From a virus, in the IMG/VR virus record IMGVR_UViG_3300017971_004694: a stretch of 64,000 nucleotides of DNA. The stretch is one strand, 5' to 3'. Under the pieces are notes generated by a model that was not told the DNA's origin, ran no database searches, and saw only the letters and a program-made list of their open reading frames with translations. Below, piece after piece: positions 892-50,466 of this stretch. How positions within the stretch are numbered: position 1 is the stretch's first letter; each line of letters begins with the position of its first letter. The translations under genes were made by a program, and so were the position numbers.

Positions 892-1929
892 TTAGCCAAC
901 GGCTACGGACTTGCGACCAACAGCGCAACCTCTTGGGTTGACGATGCCGATTCCGATGATCTCGGAAATAACCCAACCAAGCTTAAGCTGCTTTGGTTCG
1001 TCTGCTGGGAGCACCTCGATGTCCTGACGGACAGGCATAACACCAACAAACTCTGGGTCAGCCGTGCCGAACACGGTTCCGGCTGGGACGATCTTGGAAA
1101 CGATAATGTCGGCTCCCCAGATGTGGGCATAAAGACCAGTCTGAAGAATCTCTCTCATCGTAACAGGATCAACCTCGCCGCCACCAGTTCCCTGGCCACC
1201 ACCAGTTGCCCAATTCAGAATGTCATTGAACTCAATGATATTCATGAGGAACTTGGTAGTTACAAGGTCCCAGCGGTCAACCTGAACCTTGATCTCGGAG
1301 AGATCGCGCTTCAGGAGGCCAGCGTCCGCAATGTCCTGAGCGGTGTTCTCGCCGCCAAGAGTAGCGTCGGCTGCGAAATCCAAAGCTGCGAAGATGTTCG
1401 CATCCTCTTGAGCCTGGATTTCCTGACGAGCCTTTTGCTGCGCACGGTCGATGACGTTGAAACGACGCCTTCTGACTTCCGCGATACGAACGGTTGGGTT
1501 GGAAACAACCTCAAACTCTGGAACGGTCACACGGTCACCAAATACGCGGCTCTCTGGAGCCGAACCGTTGCTGGAAACAACAACAGCCGCGACATCAATA
1601 TCTCGGTCATACACAGGCAGAGCGCCCTGAGGAAGTGGGTCTACAACAAGAACTCTACGTCCAACACCCTGATAATCCAAGTTCCTACGGATTGGATTAG
1701 CCATGGCCTGGCCAAGAGCAATCTTGCCTTCCTGCGTCATAAGGGCACGCTTAATAAGCTCGTCTCTTTGCTGATCAGTAAAAGATGGATTCTGAGCTAG
1801 ACCGGTATTAGCTGGCTGAAGCTCCTCCAAGACACTAGCATACTTTACAATATTTGATAGGGCATCTTTAACAGAGCTAGCATTCTGTTCACCCTGGCTT
1901 CCATATGTGCTGAAAAGAGACATAAGCAT
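892..1929 (-). CDS. Major capsid protein (HK97 fold)
   Basis: 345 aa, strong SD (AAGGAGG), last gene before a terminator, downstream of protease/scaffold. Sequence (LGQAMANPIRRNLDYQGVGRR..., P-domain-like PEFEVVSNPTVRI, C-terminal IGIGIVNPRG) fits HK97-type capsids. N-terminal leader carries IVKYA and LIKRA motifs. Confidence 0.85.
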   Translation of the reverse strand: MLMSLFSTYGSQGEQNASSVKDALSNIVKYASVLEELQPANTGLAQNPSFTDQQRDELIKRALMTQEGKIALGQAMANPIRRNLDYQGVGRRVLVVDPLPQGALPVYDRDIDVAAVVVSSNGSAPESRVFGDRVTVPEFEVVSNPTVRIAEVRRRRFNVIDRAQQKARQEIQAQEDANIFAALDFAADATLGGENTAQDIADAGLLKRDLSEIKVQVDRWDLVTTKFLMNIIEFNDILNWATGGGQGTGGGEVDPVTMREILQTGLYAHIWGADIIVSKIVPAGTVFGTADPEFVGVMPVRQDIEVLPADEPKQLKLGWVISEIIGIGIVNPRGCAVGRKSVAVG

Positions 1930-1982
1930 TGTCCTCCTTGTGTAGTTTAGATTTGACTTTCTCTTTCATTTCTATGCGTAAT

Positions 1983-1990
1983 TATTAGTA
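1983..1990 (-). promoter_or_regulatory. Putative late promoter variant TACTAATA upstream of the capsid gene
   Basis: One mismatch to TATTAATA, in the 90-bp gap, about 55 nt upstream of the capsid start. Confidence 0.4.
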
Positions 1991-2020
1991 GATTTTCTGG
2001 AAATATATTAGGCACTTATC

Positions 2021-3415
2021 TTATTCTTTAGCCTTTTTCTTCATGGCTTGACTAATAAGATGAAGTATCCTTTCTAACTTGCTGGGATCAATAACGATTT
2101 TACCCCCTCTTACCACCTTTCCTTTGAAGCTGCCTTTGCCTTTTATTCCAAGTTTATTAAGGGCTTCGTCTATGTTTTCCTCTAGTTTTGCCGCCGCTGC
2201 GACTGTTTTCATGTCCATTTCGCCCGTTACATCAACACCGAGTATTTCTTGTAGCTTTCTAGTATTATCTTCTGGTTTAATATCTGGGGTTTCCACGGCT
2301 CTACGAGCCACATAATCCATCTTCTTTCCTAGACCTTGTGCTTTTGCTATAAGAGCTTTGGTCTCCTCTATCACATCAACAAAATCTTCATACTTCTCAT
2401 CCAAGCGAGAAGCAATGTCGAACCCAAAATGATACCATCTTCCTGTCCCAAGCTCTATTTTTACTCTAGCCATCAGGGCTTGTAGTCTTGGGAATACTGT
2501 TTGTAGTTGATTAAAGTTCGCCACAAATTTTTTGAAGTTCTTTTCATCCAAAGGCTTTGCTAGTTTTCCCATGAACGGCTTCAATATGAGTGCAGCATCT
2601 CCCGCACTTTTCGAACCTTTGCCCTTGGCAGTTTGTAGAATATCGTGAAGGTCTTTAAGATCTGTTTTCAAATCTTCTTTGCGGCTCGTTATTTTGTTTC
2701 CAAAGGCACTAAGAAGAGTCATAGCTCCGCCAAGAGCCATAGCTCCTTTGCCCCATCTACCCATGGGTGCCTTACCTTTCATAGTTTTAGTTGTGGTTCT
2801 GCCACCAGTACCCTTTTTTCTTTCAGTCGTAGTAGTTTCACCACCACCCAAGTATTTGAAAGCCATGGGGGCGACCATTGAGACGAGCCCGATTACTGCA
2901 CCAATCCAGGCCGTCTTGTGAAGACGGCCATCAACGAAAGGGAGGTCAGCGATCCTCCTGATTGTCTTATCAACCCGGAGCGCTTCCTTAACCTTACCTT
3001 CTTCCTCAAGTTGATTTGCCTTCTTGGCCAGCTCTTTTACAAGCTCCGCATGAATACCAAAAAGAGCACCGCTAGGCATCCTAGTAGCAATCTCAATATC
3101 TTTTTTCTGTTGCTCCACTTGGTTCTCTACAACGCCACCGGCACCCATCGCATCAGCAAGCACTGCCGTCTCAGGATGAGCTTTTTCGATAAGCTCTTCG
3201 CCAGTTCCTTTAGTTACGTCGTATAGTCCAGCATCCTTCCTTTCCTTATCAGTCATACTTACGCCATTGTCTCGGAAAGGACCGACGGGCGATTCACTAG
3301 GATTGCCGACCAAATCTTTCTTTTTTGGATTGAGGTCGGTAGTAATCAAACCAGCGTCGGCAGCAATCTTTTCAAATTCCGCCATGACCGAACTGCCATT
3401 CCATTGTTTGCTCAT
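2021..3415 (-). CDS. Head-associated protein with hydrophobic segments and a peptidoglycan-binding-like motif
   Basis: Likely start MSKQWNG at 3415 (AAGGAG SD). Contains LHKTA followed by WIGAVIGLVSMVAPMAF, and KLQEILGVDVTGEMDMKT (PG_binding_1-like). Confidence 0.55.
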   Translation of the reverse strand: MSKQWNGSSVMAEFEKIAADAGLITTDLNPKKKDLVGNPSESPVGPFRDNGVSMTDKERKDAGLYDVTKGTGEELIEKAHPETAVLADAMGAGGVVENQVEQQKKDIEIATRMPSGALFGIHAELVKELAKKANQLEEEGKVKEALRVDKTIRRIADLPFVDGRLHKTAWIGAVIGLVSMVAPMAFKYLGGGETTTTERKKGTGGRTTTKTMKGKAPMGRWGKGAMALGGAMTLLSAFGNKITSRKEDLKTDLKDLHDILQTAKGKGSKSAGDAALILKPFMGKLAKPLDEKNFKKFVANFNQLQTVFPRLQALMARVKIELGTGRWYHFGFDIASRLDEKYEDFVDVIEETKALIAKAQGLGKKMDYVARRAVETPDIKPEDNTRKLQEILGVDVTGEMDMKTVAAAAKLEENIDEALNKLGIKGKGSFKGKVVRGGKIVIDPSKLERILHLISQAMKKKAKE

Positions 3416-3419
3416 ATCA

Positions 3420-4490
3420 TTACGCTCCTTGTAAGAGTTCTTGTAGCTTCTTAGCCGGTGCGCCACCTTTTGGCTTTGGCATCGCCGTGGGTTTTGCGGC
3501 AGGAGCCGGCTCCCCTATCTTCTCGTATTTTGCTTCTGGTAGAAGCGAACTAGCTATTAATGTCACCGGAGGAATAAGAAAAGCTTGTTCCCTGTTCAAT
3601 CTCCGAAGTCTTTTGCCATTCAGTCTTTCTATAACCGAAAGTCTCCCCATCATCTCAGGGGAGCCTTTAAGTGGCCTTCTTTTCACCTGTCTGAAGGCTT
3701 GAGAGAAACCTTCTATGGTTGAATTAAGAAAGTGGATTAATGTGTCTTCAACATTTCCTTTCTCATTTACAATATAAAGATTCCCGGCACGCGCTGCACC
3801 AGGGACACCGCTGGGCTTTCTACCACTAAGAAGACCACTTATCGAGGGCCCTTCGCCAGGAGCAGCAGCCTCTGGAAGGCCAACTCCAAACTGCCTTTTA
3901 GCCAAACCACTAACAGCGCCAACAAGACCAAGACCAGCTAAGCCGCCAGCGAATAGTTTTAAAAGAGCATATAGGACATTAGTGAATCCCAATTTCTTTC
4001 CACCCTTAACGGCGCTGAGGAATTTCCTAAAATATCCACCCCTACCTATAGCTTGTTTCTCTATGGTTTCCGCTGGGAAATATTTGTTTGCACATGCAAT
4101 AGCAACCAAATCGTGCTCGTCCAACGTTCCCTTAATTTCAATCATATCTTCCAACATGCTGGTGGACTTGAGCCCTATTGCGCCTTTAACTTTATCCACA
4201 ACGCTTCCGGCAACATTTTTAAGACTACCCAAAGAAAGCGCTTGGCCTGGTTTCCAATTCAATTCGTCATCAACCAACCCACCAAGTTTTCCTGGTCCAA
4301 ATCCAACATACTCTGCAAGAAGAAGCAACAGTCCTATTTTCCAGCCGAAAATCTTCCAGCCAAGTATAGGGCCAATCGCTCCAAAGATCGTCTCAAATGG
4401 ATGATCCTTGAAATCTACTTTCTTAACTACCGTTCCCAGAAAATCTCGGATCATATCCTGACCTTCTTTGACGATAACTTTATCGGACAC
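3420..4490 (-). CDS. Head-associated protein with putative membrane-inserting helices
   Basis: GTG start at 4490 with GGAGG 5 nt upstream. Hydrophobic stretches IFGAIGPILGWKIFGWKIGLLLLLA and VLYALLKLFAGGLAGLGLVGAVSGL. Confidence 0.55.
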   Translation of the reverse strand: MSDKVIVKEGQDMIRDFLGTVVKKVDFKDHPFETIFGAIGPILGWKIFGWKIGLLLLLAEYVGFGPGKLGGLVDDELNWKPGQALSLGSLKNVAGSVVDKVKGAIGLKSTSMLEDMIEIKGTLDEHDLVAIACANKYFPAETIEKQAIGRGGYFRKFLSAVKGGKKLGFTNVLYALLKLFAGGLAGLGLVGAVSGLAKRQFGVGLPEAAAPGEGPSISGLLSGRKPSGVPGAARAGNLYIVNEKGNVEDTLIHFLNSTIEGFSQAFRQVKRRPLKGSPEMMGRLSVIERLNGKRLRRLNREQAFLIPPVTLIASSLLPEAKYEKIGEPAPAAKPTAMPKPKGGAPAKKLQELLQGA

Positions 4491-7400
4491 GATAGCCTCC
4501 AGGTGCTGGCGTTGGAGTTGTAGCCTTGGCCACAAGCTTTTCATGCAGCACTCTAAGATCGTTTAGATAATTTATAGCATCTGTCCGCATCTTGTTTACG
4601 AACGCCTTGGCCTCGCCTGATAGTGGCTGGGTTTTAAGGCTTTCCACTTGCCTTAAAATCTTTCCTACTTCGCCTCGCAATTGTCTTGCGTAACCTACTG
4701 GTGATTTACCACCAGAGAAAGCCTCGAAAGCACTTAGACTTTCTATAATTTCCCAATCTGGAAGCTTATCGAAATAGCTTTGCACACTATCTAGAGCAGC
4801 CTTTTCACGAGGTCTGCCACGCAGACCATAAAAAGCACCTCTATCTACCCCAGGCTTTCTGCCTCCAGCAGCAGGTGGGACCGCACCAGGTGCAGCTCCA
4901 GGAGCCCCAGGTCTCTCAGTTCCTGGAATTGGTTTAGCCGCAGGTGCTTTCCATCCACCAGCCAACTGGTTGTAAAGTTTCTGCATCATGCTTACAATCT
5001 GGTCAAATTTACCAGGGCTCTCCAAATCCATCATGGCCTTTTGAGGTTGAATAGCTCCATACATTTCCTGCAACAGCTTGGCTGGGACATCATCATGCTC
5101 GCTATCTGGGTCAAACAACTTCTGTAGTCGAAGCTCGGCAACAAAAGCCTGTGGGCTTTGTAGTGATTTCAAACTAACTTTCTTGCCCCTGAAGTCTATA
5201 TCGCCAGTAATAGCGGGAGCAGTCTTCTGTAGATATGCAGCTACTCTCTGTCCAAGATTGAGAACGTTTGCCGGCGGCTTTGCTGATGTAACAGTCGGAG
5301 TCTTAAACGCAGGCATGAGACCTTTGAGCTTGGCCATCATTTGATTATAAGCGCCGGCAGTATCTTTACCCCATGCTCCATCAACTCCATGTTTGCCCAC
5401 ATCAAAGCCAGCGGCAACCATAGCCCGCTGTAGAGCTTCAACCTGCGCATCTTTCGCCTTGGCTGGAGCCCTTCTCCTGCCTCTGTATTTGGTGGGTCTT
5501 TTGCCTTTCGCAGCCCGCTGCCTTTCTTTTAAGCGAGTAAGTAGGCTGCCCAAATCTGCAACTTTGACCAAACTGATGTTTTTCTTACCAGCAAGCTTCT
5601 TTAACACATTGTGATATAAATATTTATTTAGAAGCTTCATCTCATTTAAGCTTCTTTTGCGTGCCTTGAGCACAGCCAGCTCTTCCCTTAAGTTCTTTTT
5701 CCACTCCTCGGCGTCTTCTCCAAAAACCTTTGGGTTTGCATCTACTTTGGGAAGAATTTTGTTAATAGTCCCAACTAGAGCATTTTGAGCATTCTTAAAT
5801 TCTTTCTCGAACTTTTTATAAAGGTCTTCCCTTGGTGACACTTTTTCTTTCCCAGGCTCTTTTTTCTTCTCTAATTCTCTACTCAAAGGTCTTGTCGAAA
5901 TAAACATATCTAAATTATCAAATGCAGATGACCAAAGATCATATCCTTGGGCGCCCCAGCTTCCAGAATGTGGCTCTTCAGCAGACTCCGCATATTCGTA
6001 ATACTTTTTTATTTTTTGAAGAGTATTTTCAATCGTATTGGCAATTTTTAATAGCCTATCAAGCAATTTTTGATCCGCAGCGATTTCTTCAGCTTTTTGC
6101 ATATAACTAGCTATTCGCCTGTATGCACCCACTATAAACTCGTCGTATTCGGCATTTGGATCTTTATCGCCCCCAGGAAATGGATTAGAAATTAAAAATC
6201 CCTGTGGTTTTGCGGTAAAAGCGGTTTCTTCATCTGTTTGATCAGATACTGATCCTTCCATGGCTCTTAAACCGCTATTCATAGACTTAAGAATACTATA
6301 AAGTCTTCTTGCATCTTGAGCTTCCTTCTTAAGCGAGGCATCATTCTCCTCGGAGCCAGCCGCCTCGGAAGCTGAGCCCCTATTTACGAAAGGGTCTTCT
6401 CCTTCTAACAGTTTATCTCGCAATGAAGCAATTGTCTTATCTACAATCTGGGCTGCCTCAACATCGCCGTCTTCCTCCAGCAAATTAGCAGTTGCGACGA
6501 GCTTAGTCATCATCTCAGCATATTTGCCAGTAGGGTTCTTCAGCGCTTTTTCAACAACCTTCTTGTGCTCTTCAATAAGGGTCTCAACCTTTCCACCCTC
6601 TTCCTTTGCTGGAACGATGGTTGGTCCGCCGCCTGGGTGCGCCTGGTTAACAAGATCATCACCAGTCTCACCGGTCACATCATAAAGCTTATCGGCAGCT
6701 TCCTTGTAAAGAACAATCTGCTTGTCTACGGCAGTCGCGGCACCAGTCTCACCCATTTCCTCAAGGTCATTGGCCAGAGAAATGAGTTCGTTTATTGCTG
6801 AAGAGACAATAGCCATATCATCTGCTGCTGCCCATTCGGGGAGCTTAAGTTTTGTCTCTGGCTTTGGGCCTGGAGTCTTCTGCCATTTTTGGTGTATGGT
6901 TGGCCTTGCAACACCAATTGGTGGGCCACCACCTTTTTCTCTTTCTTCCATTTCTCTCATAGTTTTCCTCGCCATTTCCTCAACATCAAGGCCAGTCATA
7001 AGTTCTTTCATATCTAGTTTAGGCATAGTCTCTGACCAATGAGCATATGGATCAACCCATTTTGGAGTAATGGGTTTGAAGCCGGTCTCCTCAGATGGAA
7101 CTAATCCTGGTTTTGGCAACGGCTTTTCGGCAAACAGCCTTGGATATTTTGTTTTTGCGTATTCTAAAGCATCGCCTGGGTTCAGACCACGCAAATCCAT
7201 AAGTCTTTGAACTACTGTCTTTTGCTGCGGAGTAAGAGTCATAGCAGCCTCCTTGTTCACAAAATTGTCGTCTGCTGCCCCACCACGAGGCTTTGTAACA
7301 TCGCCGCCCACTTCGCGCATCTTCTTCTTTAGCTCATACTGACGGCGTTCACCAGCATCCATTTTGGCCCACTGTTCAGGGGTAGGCTCGTGACCGACAG

Positions 7401-8205
7401 CTTGCGGAACAGGCTTTGGCTTGGCAGCAGGCGGCGGGCCGGGCTTGGCAGCAGGTTTGGCAGCAGGTTTGGCAGCAGGTTTGGCAGCAGGTTTGGCAGC
7501 AGGTTTCCTTTTCGCAGTCTGCTGTTTTGCTGCATATGGCACCCACTTTTCAAGTAAATACTTCATATCTTCAGCTGAAGGAGCTTTTCTACCACGTATG
7601 GGTTTTAGACCAGCACTCTCTACTAAACTTGGATTCTTTTCCAAATAAGCATTCCAGGCCGCAGTAGAACGTCCACCCCAAGCTCCATCTGGATTACCTT
7701 TGTGAGGCCCCTTGGGATTGCTGGTTGCTATCCCAGTAGCCTTTTGTATAACAGATTGCACTTGTTTGATAAGCGGCGAGCTTTTCGGCTTTGCCCTGGT
7801 CCTACCCGCTCTACCCGATTCCGTCCCAGGCGTTACAAACTGAGGAGATTTAAGCCATGCTTGATAATCAGCTTTCCACTGTCCCATTACTGTTTCATTA
7901 GCCTTCTCTTCACTAATACCTGCACCCACCATTGTTTCGCGGGCAGCCCTATAAGCTTTATATTTTAGCTGGCCATCTGGATGGGTCCTAAGCCATTTAT
8001 TAAACTCTTCTCTGGCATCGGGCGTATCCTTCATAGATCCCCCTTCCTCTTCTGGCGCTGTAGCACCAGCGGGACCACCAGTTTCCCAACTCCAAGGCAC
8101 ACCCTTTCCTCCTTGAGATTCTTTTACGATCCAGCCCTTCTCAAGAGCCATTTTTGCAAATTCGTCCATTACGGAGCCGCCTAAAAGGTTATCGATTTTA
8201 ACCAT
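4480..8205 (-). CDS. Large (1241 aa) internal-head/ejection-like protein with two peptidoglycan-binding-like motifs
   Basis: Two DGxWGxxT motifs preceded by VxxVQ/VxxLQ helices (IKQVQSVIQ...PDGAWGGRST; VEALQRAMV...VDGAWGKDT), a KPAA repeat and two helical-hairpin motifs. Confidence 0.55.
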   Translation of the reverse strand: MVKIDNLLGGSVMDEFAKMALEKGWIVKESQGGKGVPWSWETGGPAGATAPEEEGGSMKDTPDAREEFNKWLRTHPDGQLKYKAYRAARETMVGAGISEEKANETVMGQWKADYQAWLKSPQFVTPGTESGRAGRTRAKPKSSPLIKQVQSVIQKATGIATSNPKGPHKGNPDGAWGGRSTAAWNAYLEKNPSLVESAGLKPIRGRKAPSAEDMKYLLEKWVPYAAKQQTAKRKPAAKPAAKPAAKPAAKPAAKPGPPPAAKPKPVPQAVGHEPTPEQWAKMDAGERRQYELKKKMREVGGDVTKPRGGAADDNFVNKEAAMTLTPQQKTVVQRLMDLRGLNPGDALEYAKTKYPRLFAEKPLPKPGLVPSEETGFKPITPKWVDPYAHWSETMPKLDMKELMTGLDVEEMARKTMREMEEREKGGGPPIGVARPTIHQKWQKTPGPKPETKLKLPEWAAADDMAIVSSAINELISLANDLEEMGETGAATAVDKQIVLYKEAADKLYDVTGETGDDLVNQAHPGGGPTIVPAKEEGGKVETLIEEHKKVVEKALKNPTGKYAEMMTKLVATANLLEEDGDVEAAQIVDKTIASLRDKLLEGEDPFVNRGSASEAAGSEENDASLKKEAQDARRLYSILKSMNSGLRAMEGSVSDQTDEETAFTAKPQGFLISNPFPGGDKDPNAEYDEFIVGAYRRIASYMQKAEEIAADQKLLDRLLKIANTIENTLQKIKKYYEYAESAEEPHSGSWGAQGYDLWSSAFDNLDMFISTRPLSRELEKKKEPGKEKVSPREDLYKKFEKEFKNAQNALVGTINKILPKVDANPKVFGEDAEEWKKNLREELAVLKARKRSLNEMKLLNKYLYHNVLKKLAGKKNISLVKVADLGSLLTRLKERQRAAKGKRPTKYRGRRRAPAKAKDAQVEALQRAMVAAGFDVGKHGVDGAWGKDTAGAYNQMMAKLKGLMPAFKTPTVTSAKPPANVLNLGQRVAAYLQKTAPAITGDIDFRGKKVSLKSLQSPQAFVAELRLQKLFDPDSEHDDVPAKLLQEMYGAIQPQKAMMDLESPGKFDQIVSMMQKLYNQLAGGWKAPAAKPIPGTERPGAPGAAPGAVPPAAGGRKPGVDRGAFYGLRGRPREKAALDSVQSYFDKLPDWEIIESLSAFEAFSGGKSPVGYARQLRGEVGKILRQVESLKTQPLSGEAKAFVNKMRTDAINYLNDLRVLHEKLVAKATTPTPAPGGYRVR
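7445..7504. repeat. 12-nt coding tandem repeat x5 (KPAA)
   Basis: ttggcagcaggt occurs five times in tandem. Confidence 0.95.
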
Positions 8206-8594
8206 TATTCTCCCTCCTTGAATAGATCTTCAAGCTCGTGTAGGGCCATCTCAACCCTGTAAGCTGCCTTCACGTTCTTGCCATCTGCGAGTTCATTGGC
8301 GATCTTCTCAAGATTCTCAATAAGCATCTTGTCGTAAGCTGTCTTAAGCTCTGCCACCAAGGTTGGCTTTTCAAACTGCTCTAGAGCCTCATCGAACCTT
8401 TTCATAGGTTCCTCTTCCTCCCAGAACTTTTCCTCTTCCTCTTTAGTTACCTTTGCCTCTTTCTCAAGAGGAAGGGGCTCAAAAGCCTCGGGAGGTGGGC
8501 CCTCAAGGACATTATCCTTTTGGGCAACCTTCTCAAGCTCCTTCATAACCTCGCTGTCGAGCCAAGCAGCTTTATCTTCTTTTGAGAAACTCAT
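8205..8594 (-). CDS. Acidic head-module protein (129 aa)
   Basis: Operon-coupled ORF with SD; shares the SxVMxE[FL]xKxA motif with the 2021 and 4480 genes and carries a helical-hairpin motif. Confidence 0.7.
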   Translation of the reverse strand: MSFSKEDKAAWLDSEVMKELEKVAQKDNVLEGPPPEAFEPLPLEKEAKVTKEEEEKFWEEEEPMKRFDEALEQFEKPTLVAELKTAYDKMLIENLEKIANELADGKNVKAAYRVEMALHELEDLFKEGE

Positions 8595-8615
8595 AGACGC
8601 CTCCGCGTAAAATAT

Positions 8616-9317
8616 TTACAGCCACATAAACTCAAGCGTGTTAACTATAGCACTGGGTGGCCCGGTGACTATCGCTACGCCTGGATGTGTCTCTGTTAAT
8701 TGACTTGTCGTAAGTTGTCCCGTTGCGTTGACGAACAATGTAGCGTTCACCGGGTATCTCTGTAATGTATCATACTGATCCGTCGCAAAAATACCACGCT
8801 GAAACCAAATCGTCGCCCTATTGCTTCCAATGGTCGAATCATCACCAGGAAGCGATGGGACCTGATAAACATAATTCACTACTGTTCTTACACTATCGTT
8901 TTTTCCATTCCCAGTGCTATCATAATTTAGCCTACTATCCTTGGGCAAGGTCAAAATTCCATTAACAGGATTGAGAATCAAACCCTCATAGTCGGCCACG
9001 AAACTGCTTTGTATCAAACCACCATTAGCTAGTGGTGCAGTGAAATCCACGCTGTTGAAAAAATTGTATCCATCGGTGTAGATCAAACTTGGATCGGGAG
9101 CCGATAGAAGCACGATTTCATCAACCACGGGCATCGTGAAAGCATTAGTTCTTACATCATCAATAATTCCAAGTGGCGCAGTTCCGTCAGATAAGCCCAA
9201 AACTATATCCTGGCCAACCAGTTTAAGCTGACCTATGGCCCCTGGCTGAAACGAAGCCGAGGGGTCAACTGGATATGAGAACGGCAGGGCGTTGCCCGTT
9301 TGAATAAGTCTTAACAT
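8616..9317 (-). CDS. Probable capsid decoration/cement protein
   Basis: Beta-rich 233 aa between scaffold and capsid genes; xQPGxIGQL...PLGII and GIFATDQYD...LFVNATGQLTT patterns resemble beta-tulip decoration proteins. Assignment relies partly on position. Confidence 0.45.
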   Translation of the reverse strand: MLRLIQTGNALPFSYPVDPSASFQPGAIGQLKLVGQDIVLGLSDGTAPLGIIDDVRTNAFTMPVVDEIVLLSAPDPSLIYTDGYNFFNSVDFTAPLANGGLIQSSFVADYEGLILNPVNGILTLPKDSRLNYDSTGNGKNDSVRTVVNYVYQVPSLPGDDSTIGSNRATIWFQRGIFATDQYDTLQRYPVNATLFVNATGQLTTSQLTETHPGVAIVTGPPSAIVNTLEFMWL

Positions 9318-9332
9318 ACTTCCTCCTATTTG

Positions 9333-9983
9333 TTAACGGGGCATACCTCGCTCTTTTAACATTTTAAAAGTTGCGTTGGCCGCTTCTAATTCTTTTTGAA
9401 GCTCTAATAATCTTTCATAATCAGGTTCCTCTTCCCTATAAACCATTCCTATTGCGTCCAAAACGCCTAGTGCCTTGGCCTTGGCCTCAACAATGTCAGG
9501 CTCTCCAGTAGCCTCATACTCTTCCGCAGCCTCAAACCTTTCCTCAGCTTCGGCCTCTTCTTTTCTTTGTTCAGCAAAATACTCTGGGCTTATAGCCACC
9601 TTTTCAATAGATTCGTCGAGAATATTAGCAAGCTCAGTGAAACCTTGCTTGTCAAGAGTATCGGCAACGGCAGCAAGGCTTTTCAAAGCATATTCCTCGG
9701 CTTCTGCCTTTTTACAAACATCACACACTTTTGCGCCAGGGCACTCATGGGTATCTGCTTTTTGCTCTTTATTTTTCTTTTCTTTCTTTTTCTTCATTTC
9801 TTCTTTATATTTCTTCACTTTTTGACAATTCTTTTGCTCGTGGCCAAACTTTCCACAAAAAGTACACGGCCCCATACCAGCAGTCTTATGGAAAAGCTCT
9901 TTTAAAGAATCGCTGCCTAGATTGTCTACCATAGCCTCTACAATCTCGTCAACGCTATGCTTTTTTGTAACAGTCATTTGCAT
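9333..9983 (-). CDS. Head-module protein with CCHC zinc knuckle
   Basis: CTFCGKFGHEQKNC (C-x2-C-x4-H-x4-C) at 9825-9866, directly after FHKTA; N-terminal leader and ADTLDKQGF hairpin are paralogous to the 10002-10731 gene. Confidence 0.75.
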   Translation of the reverse strand: MQMTVTKKHSVDEIVEAMVDNLGSDSLKELFHKTAGMGPCTFCGKFGHEQKNCQKVKKYKEEMKKKKEKKNKEQKADTHECPGAKVCDVCKKAEAEEYALKSLAAVADTLDKQGFTELANILDESIEKVAISPEYFAEQRKEEAEAEERFEAAEEYEATGEPDIVEAKAKALGVLDAIGMVYREEEPDYERLLELQKELEAANATFKMLKERGMPR

Positions 9984-10001
9984 TTCTCCTTGGCAGGCTC
10001 A

Positions 10002-10731
10002 TTAGTCTTTCTTCTTTTTCTTGTCTTTCTTACCATAGCGCTTTTTGATTTCAGCGCGTTTCTTGTCGCTAAGCTCATTGTCCCAGATGTCGCCAACAAT
10101 TTCACTAACTCTCTTGGTGGAATAATCTGGATTTTTCTTCTTCACATCTTTCACAGTTTTATCCCACCACCCCTTTGGTGCTTTTTCCTCAGCGCCCTCT
10201 GGCGGCTTTTCATCTTTGCCCTTCCAAGTTTTATACTTAGTCTTCTTTACTTTTTTTTTTTGCTACTCTCTCGATTGTCTCATCAAGAAGACTGGCCATT
10301 GCGTCAAAGCCCTGTTTGTCGAGGGTGTCGGCAACCTTAACCAAGTGCTTCAGCGCAAAGTCCGCTGCAATAGCCTCACGGTCATCAACTAGCTGGCCGT
10401 CGGCTGCGGCAGGAGGCATTGTCTCGCCTGGCTTCTTAAGTTCTTTGAGTTTGTCTTGTCTTGCTTGAGTAGCCGCATCAACATTGCCGCCTGCTCCCGC
10501 CTCCTTATCCGCTGCTTTCAATGCGTCCAAGTGCTTGTTATAAATTTGCGTAACCTGATTTGCGTCTTTCGCGCCCGCAAGCTCCTTCTTAAAAGCAGCG
10601 AGTGCTCCAGCAGCTTCCTTCTTAAGAGAAGCCTCTTTGTGAAACAGATCCGTAAAAGACTCGTCGCCTAGCTGTTCAGCCATAGCTTCAAGAATCTCAT
10701 CTGCATGTTTATTTTTAAGGCTGGTGCTCAT
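10002..10731 (-). CDS. Head-module protein (about 242 aa) with C-terminal HMG-box-like domain; frame broken at an A11 run
   Basis: Track ORF 10237-10731 stops soon after an A11 run (plus T11, 10251-10261). Removing one A continues into KVKKTKY...PKGWWDKTVKDVKKKNPDYSTKRVSEIVGDIWDNELSDKKRAEIKKRY...KD* (stop 10002-10004), filling an otherwise empty 250-bp gap. Confidence 0.7.
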
Positions 10732-10978: not shown

Positions 10979-12975
10979 TTAATCCCACAGTTTAAGAACT
11001 TGAGTGGAAAGATCTTCCGACACTACGCCTTCACCAAGGTCGTCGCTCGTCACGCCAACCTGAAGTGCTGGGGCAGCAGTCTTAACTGGAGATGGCTTCG
11101 TTGCGCGGCCAAGGGCACGCTTAAACGATTCAAAGCTCTCAGCATCGATCTTCATGAGATCGTCTACCTGCTTGTCAAGAGCAGCCTTCCCATCAGGAAG
11201 AAGGCCCTTCTCTTGCATCTCAAGAGCAACAGCAAAGGCTCTCTTCATGCGAACCTTCTGCTCCTCAAGATCCGAAGCTGTTTTCTTCTGGGCATATTCC
11301 TTGGTCAGTTCGGCGCCGAAAGTCTTGCTCTCGGAATCTCCCTCACCAAAATAATCCTTCCAGTATTTAGCAGCGGCAGGATCTACTGCAAAAGCCTTAA
11401 GCTTCTCTTCATCGCTTAGGTCTCCCAGATTTAGAGCACCCTCTTTAAGCAATCCACCAAGGTGTTCCATGGCTTCGCGGACCTTTGGAAGATTCTGAAC
11501 TGCCTTCATAATCTCCTCATGCATCTCCACGAGGCCCTCCACAGTGGCTTCTGGGGTCTTAGTATCAAGCTGACCAAGACCAAAGCTCTTACCAAGCGGC
11601 ATGTCTGTATCTACCGTGGTCTGTGGATCCAACTTGAGCTGATACTTGGCTCCAACCTCGGCTGCGATCTTCTCACGCCACGCGCGGCGGTCTTCAGCGG
11701 TGACTTCAAGATCATCAGCTTCGGCTTCATCAAGCATCTGAATAAGCTCGTCATCGAGCATATTTACATCATCAGCAAGCTGCTCATCATCGGCCATACC
11801 TTCAAGCTCTCCCTCAAGCAGAGCCTCTGGTTCTTCGTCTTCCATAACCTCGACTCCTGCCATCTCTGGGCCACCATGCTCCTCTTCCTTCATTTCCTCT
11901 TCCATGAATTCTTCGGTAAGACCCTTCTCTTCTAGAACCTTCTCTACAATCGCCTTGATGGCTTCCTCGTCTGCGGCCATGCACTCACCACTACCCTCTT
12001 CCCCTTCCTGAGCTTGACGGACCATTTCACGACGACGCTCGGCGCGAGCCTCTAGAAGCTTCTCAACGATAAGCTCAGCCTTGCTCTTTTTCTTATCCTC
12101 TTTCTCTTCCTTCTTTTCTTTCTTTTCCTTCTTTTTCTCTATGGCTTCCTCAAGAGCAGGAGGCAGTTTGCCCTTTTTGCCCTTCTTCTTTTTCTTTGGC
12201 TTCTCTTCCTTTTCTTCCTTCTCTTCCTTCTCTTCCTTCTCTTCCTTCTCTTCCTTTTCTCCATTCTCTTCCTCTTCTTCCTTCTCTTCCCCCTTAGCTG
12301 CATCAACTATCAACGAGGCCTCTTTACGAAGCTCAACGTTTTCGTCAACAGCATCCTTGGAAAGTCTAAGAAGCTCGGCTACAACAATATCTTCCTCGCC
12401 CTTTCCAGCCTTCTTGCGGCTTTCAAGCGATTCGGCAAGCATAGCGAGTTCATCTGCACTCTCATCGAGAGCGGCGTAGGTGGACTGAATTTTATCGGTC
12501 ACTTCAGCAGTAGCCAGCATTTCTGGGTCATCGGCAGCGTCGTCTGCATCGTCGGCGTCATCTGCATCGTCAGCCTCAGTTGGAGATGGAAGCTCGGCCT
12601 CACCCTTTCCGGTAGTTTCCTCAAGGGCATCCTTGAGATCGCCAAGGGCCTTCTCAGCCTCTTCCAGATTTTCAGTAAGGGTCTCAACAGCCTGATCCAC
12701 TGGATCTTTTGCAGGCTCTTTTTCCTCTACTTCTTCTGGGCCAGGTTCACCACCGAGATCCATTGGGGGCATCTCTGGGGCACCAGCGGCAGGTGGGGGT
12801 GCTGGAGGTGCTGGAGGTGCAGGTGGTTGGGCGGTCTTAGTAAGACCGTCGCCCTTAAGAACGTAAGCCACCTTTGCAAGACCATCCTTACGAATAGCCT
12901 TAAGAACCTCGCGACCATAGCGTTTGCTGGTAAAAATATCCCACTGGTCATCAAGCTGATCTTCCCAAACCTCGC
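10979..12975 (-). CDS. Capsid scaffolding protein (acidic coiled coil); probably the C-terminal part of a protease-scaffold fusion
   Basis: E/K-rich helical sequence ending in a short helix (STQVLKLWD). The track start at 12871 has no SD; the frame is open further up (EVWEDQLDDQWDIFTSKRYGREVLKAIRKDGLAKVAY) until TGA at 12986-12988. Confidence 0.7.
12201..12254. repeat. 9-nt coding tandem repeat x6 (KEE)
   Basis: ttctcttcc/ttttcttcc units. Confidence 0.9.
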
Positions 12976-15090
12976 ACCAGTAGCCTCAAGAACCTTGTCG
13001 GGACCAGCATAAACTTCCCAACGAGACTTCTCCTTGTTCACAGAGGTCTTCGCATCGTCATTGAAAGCCATGACGAACTTGGCGCGAAGCTTCTGGTCAG
13101 CGCGGAGGTGCTTCTTCTTCTCAGCAAGCTCAGCTGCGCCGCCACCAAGATTCTCTGGATTCTCGTCCAGATACATACCAACCATCTGCTTGTCTTCTTT
13201 CTTTTTGACATTATCATTGGTTGGATCGACCGGATAGGTCTGTGGCTCATTGACGCCACCGCCGCCCTGGTGATAGGCCCTCTTCTCACCGAAGACCTCT
13301 TCCATTGAATAGGCATTCTGCTCTGGATCATCAACGGCATCGTCGGCTGCACCGGAAGCGACTTCCTTATAGACGGTTTTTCCATCGGCGCCTTGCATAG
13401 GAACCAACTTCTTTCCATCGGTGGTGGTAATCATACCCTCGCCGCTAGAAAGAAAAGCGTGCCTCTTCAGCCTGCGCTCCTCAAGCTCTGCCCTAGACAG
13501 TTGCTTCTTAAGTCCAAGTTCCTTAGAACCACCACCAAGGTTCTCTGGATTTTCATCGAGATACATCCCGACCATTTGCTTATCTTCTTTCGCTTTCACT
13601 TGATCGTTCAATGGGTCCACTGGGTAGGTCTGTGGTTCATTTGCTCCACCACCTCCCTGATGATAAGCGGACTTCTTGAACTCTGCACGACGGGCCTCAG
13701 CCCTTTCACGAAGCTCTTTTTCAGACATAGTATGCTCCTCCTTTTTTATCTGGACGCCACTGGCTAAGTCTCCAAGTGCATTTTCCAAAGCGTCCACTTT
13801 GTTATATATATTAGTTACTTCACTTGCGAATCGAACATCAAATCCCGTTGGGTCGTTATAGTTGTCGGGGCCGGATTTAAGATCCTGTATGTATCCATGG
13901 CCGCCCCTACCGCTGGTCATCGCTTTATTCCCAGCAAGACCATACGGTGGATGTATTACTTCCACGTCTGCCGCCTGGGCTACTGGAGGCGTTGGGGGCG
14001 CCTCTGGTGCTGCTTCTTCTGGTGGCCCCTCAGCAGATGCTAATTCAACAATCTTATTCATTAGCATCTCTCTAACCTGAGGAGGCAGATCCGGATTATC
14101 CTTGAGGATGTTGCTCCAGTTACGTGCCTCTTCATCAGCTCCAGCAGCTTCCTTGACTAAGCCCTGTGATAAATTGGCGACAGTCTCGCGAAGGTCTTTA
14201 ACATCCTTGGCCAAACTATCAAGTTCGCCAGGAGTAACACAACCAGCAGCCCTAAGCTCATTAATTCTATCTTCCTTTTCCTCAGAATATTTATTGAGGC
14301 TGGCTATTACGCTTCTTAGTTGTGCGCCTGGATCTGCGCCGGTCACCACGAGGCCAAGCTCAATTGGAGAAAGATCAACGTTAATTTCTCCATATGTTTG
14401 CTTACCCTTAACACAAGGACAATAATCGGCTTCTACCTTTGCGACATTGCCGCACTCAAAACAGATAGACTTTCCAACAGCCGTTCCCATAGAGACGTTA
14501 TTGGCATATCCCGTAGAAACCTTTCTGGCCAAGTCCGGATAGTTAATCTTATCCAAAGCACATAGGGCGATGACGCGTTTGCGGGTTTCATCATAGTGAG
14601 TGTCAATTATGATGCCCCTAATTCCATCGACAGAGCTGCTTTGGTGATCTTTGCAGAGGGGCCTTCCAATCCATTTCCTATAGGCTAATTTAAGTTCTGA
14701 CTCTGGGAAAATATCGCCATTGTTGTTTTTGTATGGCTTGATGCTTGAATCACTACATTTCCATTTCCAAGAGCCGTTCTTTTTGTTGACGACCCACTCA
14801 CAAGTAACTGGATCATCACCAACTTTTTTGATTTCTCCATTTGCATCTAACAAAGCGGCTTCTGCCGCATGCATCATTACGCAACTGAAATACAAAAAAT
14901 CTTTAGCCTTTGGTGCTACGCGCTTCAAATGATTAGCATATTTCAAGAAGCGCTTTCTGATTTGTGCGTCCGCCTCTGCAACTTTGGGACTAAGCAATAG
15001 TTCTTTTACGTCAGGATTAGACAACGCCGAACAGGGAGAGTGAATCTCATCAGTGCTGAATTGTGCTTCAGCATATTTAATTATGGACAT
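12727..15090 (-). CDS. Prohead (maturation) serine protease, HK97-gp4/assemblin-like fold, N-terminal part of a probable about 1370-aa protease-scaffold precursor
   Basis: Start MSIIKYA at 15090 with GGAG SD. Motifs NNNGDIFPESEL, PLCKDH (catalytic His candidate), VSMG (catalytic Ser candidate), CFEC...CPC Zn site and ELGLVVTGADP. The last about 80 aa of this frame look out of frame. Confidence 0.8.
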   Translation of the reverse strand: MSIIKYAEAQFSTDEIHSPCSALSNPDVKELLLSPKVAEADAQIRKRFLKYANHLKRVAPKAKDFLYFSCVMMHAAEAALLDANGEIKKVGDDPVTCEWVVNKKNGSWKWKCSDSSIKPYKNNNGDIFPESELKLAYRKWIGRPLCKDHQSSSVDGIRGIIIDTHYDETRKRVIALCALDKINYPDLARKVSTGYANNVSMGTAVGKSICFECGNVAKVEADYCPCVKGKQTYGEINVDLSPIELGLVVTGADPGAQLRSVIASLNKYSEEKEDRINELRAAGCVTPGELDSLAKDVKDLRETVANLSQGLVKEAAGADEEARNWSNILKDNPDLPPQVREMLMNKIVELASAEGPPEEAAPEAPPTPPVAQAADVEVIHPPYGLAGNKAMTSGRGGHGYIQDLKSGPDNYNDPTGFDVRFASEVTNIYNKVDALENALGDLASGVQIKKEEHTMSEKELRERAEARRAEFKKSAYHQGGGGANEPQTYPVDPLNDQVKAKEDKQMVGMYLDENPENLGGGSKELGLKKQLSRAELEERRLKRHAFLSSGEGMITTTDGKKLVPMQGADGKTVYKEVASGAADDAVDDPEQNAYSMEEVFGEKRAYHQGGGGVNEPQTYPVDPTNDNVKKKEDKQMVGMYLDENPENLGGGAAELAEKKKHLRADQKLRAKFVMAFNDDAKTSVNKEKSRWEVYAGPDKVLEATGARFGKISLMTSGIFLPANAMVARFLRLFVRMVLQRWLTFLRATVLLRPPNHLHLQHLQHPHLPLVPQRCPQWISVVNLAQKK
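13099..13665 (-). repeat. Internal duplication: two 59-aa peptides (13489-13665 and 13099-13275)
   Basis: YHQGGGG[AV]NEPQTYPVDP.ND.VK.KEDKQMVGMYLDENPENLGGG..EL..KK.L.RA-like sequence in both copies. Confidence 0.95.
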
Positions 15091-45499: not shown

Positions 45500-46516
45500 T
45501 TAAGTAAGTCTGGACAACACATCTGATCTTGAATCGTAAAAGCGCATAGGTATTCCGCCATAATTGCTTTCCATGGGTGTCTGCGCCGCTACGCTGCCGC
45601 CCGGAACCCCTTGGCCCTCATAATTAACATAGCCGGTCTCATAATTGTATTCCTTGCCGTCTAAAGGACATTGATAAGTATGATCATCGATCCTAACCGC
45701 CTGAACTCCTATGTGATCTGGACAGTATCTTGTAGAGAGCGATCCTTCATGTATGGGCTGAAGCGGAGGTTGGTTCTCACTTGCTTTCCCAGCTTGAGGA
45801 CAATATCCATAATCCTCGGCAGTCTTAATTAGCCCAAGACTCTCATCAACTTTGTCAGCCAGTGCATAGAAACCGTTTTCATCTAACCAATTGGCAAGCC
45901 TAGTTAAATCATAGGTGGCGCTGGAGAAAGTTTGAACATCTTTTATTCTATCAGCGTGTTTCCACAGCACCTTAGCCATGTGACGCATATCTTCGTAAAT
46001 TTTCGGTTTTAATTCTTCAGTTTTGCCCCACTCAAGCTGATCCGCATGTTGCTTCAACCTCTCAGCTATTAGGCCCATCAACGTGGCTAGCACATAACCG
46101 TCGCCTCTGCTCTCCGAAATAACCTCATATTCTTTCTCTTTCTCCTTGCTTTTTCTGGCCTTCTCAATTGGGATAATATCAGCCTCGTCAGCTTTTTTAA
46201 CCAAAGCCACCATGTCAGTAATCTTATCGGCCAGAGCATGAAATCCACTTTCATCAAGATAGTCAGCGAACTTAACCAACTCTTCAACAGAAGAAGAAGC
46301 GACCTTGGCTTTTTGATGCGCTGCCATTAATTTTTGCTGATAGTTCCTCACGAACTGCCCAAGATGGCCAACATTTTCAACCATCCTGTTAATGGCGGCT
46401 TGCCGCTGCTGAGGAGTTCCAGTATTTACCTGCCTCGTCAGCGGCACAAGATTCATACCATGGAACTGGGTTAAGTTCCTTAGCAGTTCTTGCAGAACCT
46501 CCTGATAAGGATTCAT
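45500..46516 (-). CDS. Head-module protein with two helical hairpins and a C-terminal CPDH...CPLD metal-binding-like domain
   Basis: ADYLDESGFHALADKI and ANWLDENGFYALADKVD; LVKKA, LIKTA. Confidence 0.7.
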   Translation of the reverse strand: MNPYQEVLQELLRNLTQFHGMNLVPLTRQVNTGTPQQRQAAINRMVENVGHLGQFVRNYQQKLMAAHQKAKVASSSVEELVKFADYLDESGFHALADKITDMVALVKKADEADIIPIEKARKSKEKEKEYEVISESRGDGYVLATLMGLIAERLKQHADQLEWGKTEELKPKIYEDMRHMAKVLWKHADRIKDVQTFSSATYDLTRLANWLDENGFYALADKVDESLGLIKTAEDYGYCPQAGKASENQPPLQPIHEGSLSTRYCPDHIGVQAVRIDDHTYQCPLDGKEYNYETGYVNYEGQGVPGGSVAAQTPMESNYGGIPMRFYDSRSDVLSRLT

Positions 46517-46518
46517 TA

Positions 46519-48198: not shown

Positions 48199-48238
48199 TT
48201 TACTCGCCTCCAAGTATATTTAGTCTTTCGATTTGCTA

Positions 48239-48246
48239 TATTAATA
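48239..48246 (-). promoter_or_regulatory. Putative late promoter TATTAATA
   Basis: Exact motif in a 100-bp gap, 41 nt upstream of the ATG at 48198. Confidence 0.45.
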
Positions 48247-48297
48247 TATGTCTTTATCAATTTTTTCAACTTCTCTTTCCATTGTTATTCTGAGATA

Positions 48298-50466
48298 TTA
48301 TTCGTCATCCGCCTCAAGCTCTTCAAAGTATTCTTCAGCGGTCGGCAGAAACTCTGATTTTGAGAAACCCTTGCTGTGATATAGATGGGTTGGCTTCTTG
48401 GTGCCAAACTCACTTTCAGCAATGTCGGCAAGCTCCATCTTAAGTTCGTTCAGTTTTTCTCTGAGGATGCTCTTCTCATTTTCAGGCGTATCTTGTCTTC
48501 TAAGCCTGTGCTTGATGTCCCTCATATCGTCCAGTATTTCATCGATTCTTTCAGCACCAGGCTTTTCCTCTTCTTCCTCAAAGGACAGTTCTTCTCCTGG
48601 TTCCAACTGCTCCTCTTCCGCAAGCTCTCTGAAACTAAGAGGAACCCCCTCAGGTTCGTCCACGAGCTGCATCCCTTCCTCATCGGGCTCCTCTTCCTTA
48701 GCCTCTTCTCTTTCTTCAAGCTCTTCTACCATTCTTCTAAGCATGCCCACATTGCCAGAGCCTGCTTCCACATCATATATAAGACCAGACAAATCAACAG
48801 CTTCCTCGCTGCCTGGGTCTAAGTAATGTTCAAGAGCGTAATAGGCTTTCTCCAAAAGCTCTTCGTCTTTGTCTTCAACTTTCTGCTCACACTGGCCACA
48901 CATGGATCTTTTAGAAAGACAAAGATCATCGGCGGCTTTGACAGGGATTCCAACACAATCGCATTCGCCTGGGGAACCACCACATATATTACATTTGGGG
49001 CACATACATCCCTCTGGTGATTTTCCACACTTGGGGCAATTTTTACACTTACACAATTTGCCAGGGTCGCCACATTTGGGGCAGATGCACTCACACAATT
49101 CTTTGGGACTACCACACTGCAAACAAGTTTTTATGTCTTCAGCCATTTTGGAAAGCTCAAGATCTAAGAAAGCAAGGCTCCATTGATCGGCGGCAAGGAG
49201 TCCAGGCTCCATACACTCGCTCTCGGTTTCTTCTATACCAAGCTCGGATTCTCCGGTTTCCACGCTAGATGGTTCTTTCGAATACTCTGGATCCCAAGGA
49301 ATATATCTACCATCATCTTCCATCTCTTTTTTCCAAACCTTAAATGCTCGCTCAGGTGCATCTTTAATGGCGTTGGCCATTCTCCATCGCAGCTTTTCTA
49401 TTTTTTCTGGAGTGTTTACATCATACTTAACTTCACTCCAGGACTGATAAGCAATAAATATTCTCTTCTGGTCGTGGGTGAGATCCAACTCTTCCAGTAT
49501 TTCTTCTGCGGTGGGCTCCTTTTCCTTTTCACCAAAAGGCCAAACCGCATGCTTTTTGAGCCTAATCATATGATTGGCCATGGCCCATTGATCGGAAGCT
49601 TCGGCTTCGTCTTCCTCGTCATATTCGTCCCACCACGCATGGGGCTGCTCAAGCATCGGCAAGCTGCCATATTCAAGCGTCCCCAATCTTTTGCCAACCG
49701 CAGCAAGCTCAGAAACATCAACAATAAATACACCCTGCTCATCATTGGAGACCCCAATCATTCTGGGATTCACATCTTTGCCTTCTGCATCTTTCACCAT
49801 GCACTCAACCGAATCCCACCTCTCGCCTTCCAATGGTTCCTCTTTGACTGAAACATCACCCATGCCCTCACCATAAGGAATAGAGCTAAGTTTGTATCCA
49901 TTAGGATAAGAAGTTAAATAGCTGAATCCATGAGTGGTTGGCCTATATTCTACGGAGCCACCACTCTGCTCTAAAATAGACTTTATCTCCTCGGCTGTAA
50001 AATCATCCCAGGCGACAATCTCTTTTAAAGCGGCTTGCTTATCAGAAGGAAGACTAAAATAAAAACTCCTAATAAACTTCTGGTCGCTATTAAGTCTCTC
50101 ATAAATGGTATCCCTAAGCATCCAAGCTTCTTTTGTATTAGTGGCTCCATACTCTTTACAGGCCACGCGCTTGATAGGAATATTTTGATAAGCGACAGTG
50201 ATGTTCTCTTCTTTCTTATCGAGCATAACTTTCCAGTTGCTCGTCACCACATTTTCCTCATCGCCTATATCAAAAGTGCGAACAAGGAACTCGCCATCGT
50301 CATTAGACTGAATCTGCCAGAGTTCCTCGGGGCCACTGTCTTTAAATCGCACCATATCAAAAGCAACTCTAATGATACGGTGCTCGTTCCCCTTTAGTGG
50401 GATGCGGCTTGTGTCCGGATCCACGACATTGCTAAGGGACTTATAATCTAGTTCAAACTTTTCCAT
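48298..50466 (-). CDS. Modular protein with a Cys-rich 4x CxxCGx5CxC module
   Basis: 16 Cys in 57 aa (48955-49125); LKKHA, LSKMA, AADD and ASD linkers; first gene of the structural module. Confidence 0.75.
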   Translation of the reverse strand: MEKFELDYKSLSNVVDPDTSRIPLKGNEHRIIRVAFDMVRFKDSGPEELWQIQSNDDGEFLVRTFDIGDEENVVTSNWKVMLDKKEENITVAYQNIPIKRVACKEYGATNTKEAWMLRDTIYERLNSDQKFIRSFYFSLPSDKQAALKEIVAWDDFTAEEIKSILEQSGGSVEYRPTTHGFSYLTSYPNGYKLSSIPYGEGMGDVSVKEEPLEGERWDSVECMVKDAEGKDVNPRMIGVSNDEQGVFIVDVSELAAVGKRLGTLEYGSLPMLEQPHAWWDEYDEEDEAEASDQWAMANHMIRLKKHAVWPFGEKEKEPTAEEILEELDLTHDQKRIFIAYQSWSEVKYDVNTPEKIEKLRWRMANAIKDAPERAFKVWKKEMEDDGRYIPWDPEYSKEPSSVETGESELGIEETESECMEPGLLAADQWSLAFLDLELSKMAEDIKTCLQCGSPKELCECICPKCGDPGKLCKCKNCPKCGKSPEGCMCPKCNICGGSPGECDCVGIPVKAADDLCLSKRSMCGQCEQKVEDKDEELLEKAYYALEHYLDPGSEEAVDLSGLIYDVEAGSGNVGMLRRMVEELEEREEAKEEEPDEEGMQLVDEPEGVPLSFRELAEEEQLEPGEELSFEEEEEKPGAERIDEILDDMRDIKHRLRRQDTPENEKSILREKLNELKMELADIAESEFGTKKPTHLYHSKGFSKSEFLPTAEEYFEELEADDE

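Follow-up and report, generated by a model that had tools for sequence, protein, structure and literature searches.

A Lys-x-Ala motif in the head proteins of a phage G-like megaphage

The window analyzed here, a 64,000-nucleotide stretch of DNA from IMG/VR virus record IMGVR_UViG_3300017971_004694, carries the head-assembly and replication genes of a megaphage that belongs to the Bacillus phage G lineage and has not been cultured. Its head proteins share a short motif, [LIFVM]-x-K-x-A (a hydrophobic residue, Lys, and Ala at alternate positions), which is probably a new code for recognition and cutting by the prohead protease, doubling as a head-loading tag like the capsid-targeting sequence of T4. 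The motif statistics, the restriction to head genes, the conservation, the positions of the sites, and the fold of the protease together are the pattern expected of a prohead-protease code, and we found no publication describing a Lys-x-Ala code.

All genes of the window are on the minus strand. The 36 open reading frames (ORFs) that make up the head set (892-50466; 16,384 amino acids, aa) contained 80 motif sites, compared with 31.4 ± 5.3 expected from whole-protein shuffles (z 9.1), and the expectation was essentially the same, 31.6 to 32.5 (z 8.4 to 9.0), when shuffling was confined to blocks of 10 to 50 residues to keep the local composition. The 19 replication ORFs (50568..63997; DNA polymerase, primase, UvsX-like recombinase, RuvC-like resolvase, and SSB) served as an internal control and had 10 sites against about 7.1 to 7.2 expected, which was not significant. 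The excess was approximately 2.6-fold in each of the sub-regions 892-15198, 15236-32553, and 36402-50466, the last of which holds the twelve genes upstream of the terminase gene (21 sites versus 8.0 expected), and only 1.2-fold in the portal protein and the large terminase (34550-36436). The initial annotation had proposed from a list of pentapeptides that the motif recurs across the head module. Every pentapeptide and every A-D-D string that it listed is present in the window, and the recurrence itself was borne out as head-specific and conserved.

Among all 400 patterns of the form [LIFVM]xXxY, the Lys/Ala pair ranked first by enrichment in the head genes (z 8.7), followed by [LIFVM]xExL, an ordinary helical pattern that was equally enriched in the replication genes. 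Negating any single residue left a flat ratio of 1.01-fold for [^LIFVM]xKxA, 0.90-fold for [LIFVM]x[^K]xA, and 1.02-fold for [LIFVM]xKx[^A]; the excess is a three-way effect in which the hydrophobic residue, the Lys, and the Ala are all required. Gly was left out of the motif at the Ala position (P1, counted from a cut after it) because [LIFVM]xKxG was not enriched in the window (27 versus 28.5). A stricter form of the motif, with Leu, Ile, Phe, or Met but not Val at the first position and Gln, Ser, Ala, Gly, or Asp after the Ala, was found 41 times against 7.1 expected, and the motif followed by Gln 12 times against 1.1.

Such an excess could be a functionless by-product of a helical composition rich in Lys, Ala, and Leu, or of paralogous duplication. 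The head proteins are indeed rich in helix, and the helical [LIFVM]xExL pattern is enriched in head and replication genes alike. However, the block shuffles that keep the local composition did not change the expectation, and two-residue sub-patterns, the reversed motif (0.89-fold), and altered spacings (0.7- to 1.65-fold) mostly stayed between 0.7- and 1.1-fold, the maximum of 1.65-fold being that of HKxA. The flanks were unrelated at 79 of the 80 sites, and therefore paralogy is not the cause of the excess. Together with the conservation above decoy motifs and the single genome bin that stands alone in a 480-kb relative (see below), these points largely refute a by-product, which we now consider highly improbable.

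Recurrence and conservation of the motif in related phages

The nearest cultured relative of the window is Bacillus phage G, whose capsid protein gp27 is 52% identical to that of the window and whose protease is also related; the gene order portal, protease, capsid is shared by the window, its relatives, and phage G. About 400 contigs in IMG/VR, some of them 340 to 480 kb long, encode a capsid protein 75 to 95% identical to that of the window, and near-identical DNA is present in sediment and seawater metagenome runs.

Five related contigs, with proteins that mostly share 25 to 60% identity with those of the window, showed a 1.7- to 2.1-fold enrichment of the motif in their 60-kb head regions, and the Lys/Ala pair ranked first or within the top four patterns in each of them. 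Individual sites were also kept between orthologues: alignments of the five relatives showed the motif retained in 44% of orthologue cells, compared with 6% for replication genes and 9 to 38% for ten decoy motifs. The recurrence noted in the initial annotation also held in homologous phage contigs.

When 457 kb of a complete 480-kb relative was scanned in 20-kb bins, a lone bin, running from the protease through the capsid gene, was enriched (38 sites versus 11.5, z 7.8), with the other 22 bins at 0.6- to 1.8-fold. The protease-scaffold protein in this bin has 13 sites, and nearly all proteins encoded between the protease-scaffold and capsid genes have a site at residues 10 to 38. The head genes of phage G, gp2-gp28, had 26 sites against 9.3 expected, compared with 11 against 8.5 for gp29-gp73. 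Full-length homologues of the protease-scaffold protein (n = 113) contained 1060 sites against 353 expected (3.0-fold), or approximately 9.4 sites per protein; all of them were enriched, and even the 5th percentile was at 1.8-fold. We found no clear excess in Mycobacterium phage Catera or Erwinia phage phB78, which are more distant but have related capsid or protease genes, and the code therefore appears to be limited to the phage G lineage.

Position and flanking preferences of the sites

The sites concentrate near the N termini of the head proteins. The first 40 residues of the head ORFs held 16 sites versus 2.8 expected, an approximately 6-fold excess, with 15 of the 36 ORFs having one, and a site within the first 50 residues is found in 82 of the 338 ORFs of six head regions, the shortest form being M-x-K-x-A at residues 1 to 5. 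Leader sites are present in six of the head proteins encoded between the protease and capsid genes (2021..10731): FEKIA at residue 31, FAKMA at 16, LEKVA at 20, FHKTA at 31, FHKEA at 30, and LKKEA at 36.

Flanking preferences were pooled from 385 sites. From P16 to P2, Pro and Gly were depleted, both being nearly absent at P2, and hydrophobic positions followed a heptad-like pattern, with Val at P4; the tag thus appears usually to close an amphipathic helix. A mild acidic preference at P6, P7, and P10 generalized across the pooled sites. Beyond the Ala, P1' was enriched in Gln (2.7-fold), Ala, and Asp, and Arg and Pro were depleted at P1' and P2'. A flexible stretch often follows the tag, as in LTKTA-QPPAPP, LRKVA-QPPAPAG, and ICKEA-QQPG.

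These preferences bear on the main rival explanation, in which the motif is a loading or docking tag only, that is, a helix end binding the scaffold core or the inner capsid wall, with the protease cutting elsewhere or rarely. Docking would account for the helical signature from P16 to P2, for C-terminal copies of the motif where cutting would be pointless, and for a hairpin with the motif at both ends (hxKxAD-LD-GF-A-DE-hxKxA, where h is hydrophobic) that is found in several unrelated proteins and their orthologues; the T4 capsid-targeting sequence, moreover, has separable targeting and processing determinants (PMC9026906). However, docking alone does not readily explain up to 12 to 13 copies per protein, placed at module joints and around the protease domain, nor sequence preferences that reach P1' and P2', and M-x-K-x-A at residues 1 to 5 is too short for a docking helix. 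We regard it as unlikely, but as an explanation to be reckoned with.

A protease-scaffold gene dense in sites

When read through, the protease-scaffold gene (10979..15090) is one reading frame of roughly 1,370 aa. In the window it is broken into two ORFs that overlap (12727-15198 and 10979-12871); all relatives have it as one uninterrupted ORF (1,222 to 1,393 aa; 1,040 to 1,393 aa among the 113 homologues), and the start in the relatives and in the database gene call is at M37 (nt 15090). The frames change just after LEATGA (12970..12975). The window has a plus-strand G at 12974 where assemblies of three independent runs, two of them at approximately 170x, have TC, a reading that restores LEATGG-EVWEDQL in a single frame. 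Given the extra base in three independent assemblies, the split can be put down to an error or a rare variant of the window sequence rather than to biology. A programmed frameshift was considered and rejected, as there is no slippery sequence and the extra base is present in those assemblies. The initial annotation had placed the protease at 12727-15090; the protease domain is indeed there, but this ORF is only the front part of the protease-scaffold gene. The scaffold-like part holds, at 12560-12590 (residues 100-115 of ORF 10979-12871), an acidic repeat, ADDADDADDADDAADD, and PPAPPAPPAPPP runs, which raise the uncorrected count of ADD strings (see below).

The prohead protease domain (residues 158-306 of the 823-aa ORF; 14281..14727) matched the head maturation protease profile phrog_18299 (E 1.1e-12) and phrog_4523 (E 1.1e-4). 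There was no Pfam match at E 0.01, and a phmmer search of the domain against PDB sequences gave no relevant match. An AlphaFold model of residues 37-400 had a mean predicted local distance difference test (pLDDT) score of 79, with the core at about 90. The model aligned with T4 gp21 (5jbl) at Z 9.7 and a root mean square deviation of 2.9 Å over 132 residues (VIA-align), and with the proteases of varicella-zoster virus (VZV), pseudorabies virus (PrV), herpes simplex virus (HSV), cytomegalovirus (CMV), the herpesvirus associated with Kaposi's sarcoma (KSHV), and Epstein-Barr virus (EBV) at Z 6.8 to 9.7, VZV being at 9.7 and all of them above unrelated folds; Foldseek gave a best E of only about 0.01. 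As modeled, the domain has the T4 gp21/herpesvirus assemblin fold of MEROPS clan SH.

Sites flank this domain on both sides. FLKYA (14935..14949) stands just before it, and F-x-K-x-A is found at this place in 111 of 113 homologues, with phage G gp19 having LVKTA. LVKEA (14146..14160), just after the domain, resembles the herpesvirus release (R) site and forms the end of a model helix (287-313) ahead of a low-confidence linker; residues 265-380 contain a site in 69 of the 113 homologues, compared with 22 after shuffling. Further on, LTKTA (12830..12844) is followed by QPPAPPAPP, and K-x-A with a subsequent Pro-rich linker is present in 96 of 113. A relaxed site, VKTA|A (11075..11086), lies approximately 35 residues from the C terminus and resembles the herpesvirus maturation (M) site. 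Within the last 70 residues, 83 of the 113 homologues have K-x-A-[SGA] and 98 have the relaxed form, approximately 38 residues from the C terminus. The acidic, Pro-rich, and helical make-up of the C-terminal region suggests a scaffold function.

Leader sites of the capsid and portal proteins

The major capsid protein (345 aa; 892..1929; phrog_2522, E 2.7e-76) has an N-terminal site, IVKYA, at residues 27-31 (1837..1851), which is a candidate propeptide end. This site reads [IL]-x-K-[YF]-A in 80 of 80 orthologues, and in a 26-sequence alignment K29 and A31 are invariant with variable flanks. Phage G gp27 is without the 46-residue leader of the window protein. LIKRA, also listed as a capsid site in the initial annotation, was not upheld, since its Lys is replaced by Ser, Arg, Thr, or Ala in relatives (LISRA, LIRRA, LITRA); it falls in the region aligned to the body of gp27, opposite LISKA. 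An AlphaFold model of the capsid protein from a shallow 26-row alignment had a mean pLDDT of 38, which made the leader structure unreadable, and a complex prediction that paired residues 40-270 of the protease domain with capsid leader residues 1-60, run without controls, scored 0.14 against a mark of 0.32 and counts neither for nor against an interaction.

An alternative view of the motif Lys is that head proteins are covalently modified or cross-linked through it, for instance by an isopeptide bond or by acylation, and that it is neither a protease nor a docking signal. This Lys forms the invariant center of a motif that is restricted to head proteins, and HK97-type capsids cross-link through Lys. 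However, orthologous sites show K-to-R changes, PHROG and Pfam profile searches identified no modifying enzyme among the head genes, and the positions in N-terminal leaders and at module joints, along with the small P1 residue, are typical of cleavage sites. We therefore give Lys modification very little weight.

In the portal protein (656 aa; 32566..34536; phrog_16240, E 4.5e-55), FVKQA at residues 104-108 (34213..34227) precedes a Ser/Gly-rich linker and the conserved portal body. Orthologues read YLKTA, FRKQA, MKKNA, or VKKYG at this position; in the phage G portal, MAKQA occupies residues 16-20. Two relatives, G002 (L086) and G003 (L089), have portal ORFs of 1,421 and 1,056 aa with fragmented homology to the window portal, and the insertions in them may be inteins.

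Sites at module joints of giant head proteins

The initial annotation had described the sites as lying at domain boundaries, which is correct in part. Twelve of 42 homology breakpoints were within 12 residues of a site, compared with 5.3 expected (p ~0.004), and sites are found at several Pfam/PHROG edges, but the association is only partial. Several such cases lie in a 3,135-aa multi-module protein with 12 sites (20783..30190). Its Pfam matches are DJ-1/PfpI (residues 1018-1177), LigD phosphoesterase (2445-2547), and a weak LigD Prim-Pol (826-906), and PHROG modules cover residues 13-150, 1055-1181, and 2566-2685.

IIKEA at residues 1011-1015 (27146..27160) ends three residues before the DJ-1/PfpI match, which starts at residue 1018 with profile position 1, and a homology breakpoint is also at 1018. 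LSKRA-M-LVKTA at residues 147-157 (29720..29752) marks a module-swap joint: the phrog_12854 match ends there, at about residue 153, and homology to the relative G001 starts at residue 152 (G001 residue 415), beside an LSKRA at G001 residue 416, with the N-terminal modules differing between the two proteins. The ATP-dependent DNA ligase, a separate gene in the window (30229-31206; PF01068, E 3e-32), is fused to the giant protein in the relatives G001 to G003, and in G001 the ligase is followed by that LSKRA, where homology to the window resumes. Near the other end, LEKKA at residues 2564-2568 (22487..22501) is the joint at which the G001 homologue ends and extra modules follow; the phrog_17560 match is bracketed by LEKKA and LFKKA. 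Another protein, ORF 18064-19734, has IDKSA at residues 453-457 (18364..18378) directly before a module that elsewhere is a stand-alone family: positions 6-96 of the 96 in the phrog_7595 profile, a 96-aa protein family, match residues 463-548.

Comparison with known prohead proteases

T4 has L/I-x-E sites and a capsid-targeting sequence, and both its scaffold and gp21 itself contain several gp21 sites (PMC9026906); phiKZ (gp175) and SPN3US (gp245) use A-x-E sites (PMC9026906, PMC10052503). As in T4, one short motif in the window is common to the capsid protein, the protease, the scaffold, and internal proteins, it closes N-terminal leaders of approximately 5 to 40 residues, the scaffold has many sites, the protease is flanked by sites, and the protease fold is the same. 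Unlike in T4, where Glu is at P1, that position is taken by Ala in the window motif and P3 by Lys, a scaffold-like region of approximately 1,000 residues is fused to the protease, and the presumed substrates include multi-enzyme proteins of 1,200 to 3,100 aa. A T4-type Glu code was not found, [LIFVM]xExA being enriched only 1.33-fold. As the enriched motif is Lys plus Ala and not Glu, the system appears to be T4-like in its working without having T4's code.

In the herpesviruses, pUL26 joins protease and scaffold in one polypeptide and carries R and M sites (PMC4498786). The window protein resembles it in its layout: a protease with that fold at the N terminus shares the chain with a C-terminal scaffold-like region, a conserved site follows the protease domain, and a second one lies a few tens of residues before the C terminus. 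The assemblin site consensus is (V/L/I)-x-A|S, and the presumed P1 in the window is likewise the small residue Ala, often followed by Ser, Ala, or Gly. On the other hand, assemblin has its hydrophobic residue at P3, whereas the window motif has a Lys there and its hydrophobic residue at P5, enrichment at P1' is strongest for Gln, and there are dozens of presumed substrates, not two. The HK97 gp4 protease belongs to a related clan and cuts the capsid delta domain after Lys103. A Lys thus adjoins the (presumed) scissile bond in both systems; unlike HK97, which is without a defined multi-protein motif, the window motif equally requires the Ala two residues after the Lys.

Weighing the cleavage code and a proposed mechanism

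Several observations weigh against a cleavage code. Chance alone would account for about 30 of the 80 sites, and single sites such as LIKRA are therefore unreliable. The 16 residues before the Ala look helical, which a docking helix fits as well as a protease site does, and the near-invariant site before the protease domain sits in a well-conserved helix of the model and is possibly structural. The residues H74, H149, S151, and S200 (counting from M37), which do not vary among 33 sequences, are catalytic candidates only. Two proteins, 2021-3466 and 31213-32553, end in h-x-K-x-A-K-E (MKKKAKE and IMKQAKE), so that a cut would remove just two residues. Finally, the literature searched on phage G and its relatives yielded no proteomic or biochemical cut and no paper on cleavage sites.

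We still favor a recognition and cleavage code that doubles as a loading tag. The corresponding inference of the initial annotation is supported in part, in that the motif is head-specific, conserved, concentrated at N termini and joints, and dense in a protease-scaffold protein with a gp21/assemblin fold; its A-D-D part does not stand (see below). By analogy with T4, cleavage, packaging of the giant proteins, and release of enzymes would proceed as follows. The recognition signal would be hydrophobic-x-Lys-x-Ala, which usually ends an amphipathic helix and has Gln, Ser, Ala, Gly, or Asp as the favored next residue, and the protease would be the assemblin/T4 gp21-fold N-terminal domain of the roughly 1,370-aa protein. 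Tagged proteins would co-assemble with the scaffold core in the procapsid, as in T4, and the activated protease would then cut at or beside the tag. The scissile bond would be the one after the Ala, as in assemblin, or less probably the one after the Lys. Short N-terminal leaders would be lost from about a dozen internal proteins as well as from the capsid and portal proteins, the protease would be freed from the scaffold and the C-terminal tail of the scaffold detached, and the modules of the giant multi-enzyme proteins would be separated.

There is precedent for loading foreign enzymes into a phage head (PMC9026906, PMC10052503). Enzyme domains of several kinds are found among the head proteins: ATP-dependent ligase, LigD polymerase and phosphoesterase, DJ-1/PfpI, phosphatase, and lysin-like. 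We tentatively suggest, as a possibility that falls short of an even prospect, that the phage G lineage, with its hundreds of environmental megaphages, uses an undescribed Lys-x-Ala "load, then cut" code to pack a changeable enzyme kit into the capsid as giant polyproteins and to release it there for injection into the host, new cargo being gained by inserting a module between two tags. If the code is real, the head protease of the largest phage in culture, and that of many uncultured relatives, would have a cleavage specificity for the first time, and the code would make mature virion proteins and packaged cargo predictable from megaphage sequence alone. It would also explain how multi-enzyme head proteins are built and exchanged, and, like the T4 capsid-targeting sequence before it, it could serve as a transferable tag by which foreign proteins are brought into very large capsids.

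A-D-D strings

The initial annotation had also taken A-D-D, shortly before a site, for a linker and perhaps a second cut site. In the window, ADD occurs 19 times in the head proteins against 5.1 expected, with 8 of the 19 in two acidic low-complexity stretches, and it is followed by a site within 20 residues 5 to 6 times against approximately 0.3 expected. The observation thus holds for the window, but it is absent in the five relatives, in which ADD was not clearly enriched and was followed by a site 0 to 1 times per genome; the sole orthologous case reads TDD. With neither an excess nor a coupling to sites in these relatives, we rejected A-D-D as a general linker or second cut site.

Other features of the head genes

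The helical hairpin mentioned above is approximately 30 residues long, with the pattern h-x-K-x-A-D-x-L-D-x-x-G-F-x-x-x-A-x-x-x-D-E-x-h-x-K-x-A, and is found in the unrelated head proteins 45500-46516, 10237-10731, and 9333-9983. It is repeated within 45500-46516 and conserved in orthologues in the relatives G001 to G003, and it may be a capsid- or scaffold-binding module. The proteins 2021-3466 and 31213-32553, which are otherwise different, have near-identical tails, LHLISQAMKKKAKE and LRLISIMKQAKE. From their sequences, these look like a shared C-terminal helix with the motif two residues from the end.

The part of the head module at 20783-31206 encodes a set of DNA end-joining enzymes, namely the ligase, the weakly matched LigD Prim-Pol, and the LigD 3'-phosphoesterase. 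Two further motif-bearing proteins are 16224-17750, with a dual-specificity/tyrosine phosphatase-like domain at residues 294-418, and 4480-8205, with an endolysin-like segment at residues 891-955; both are possible injected or wall-acting cargo.

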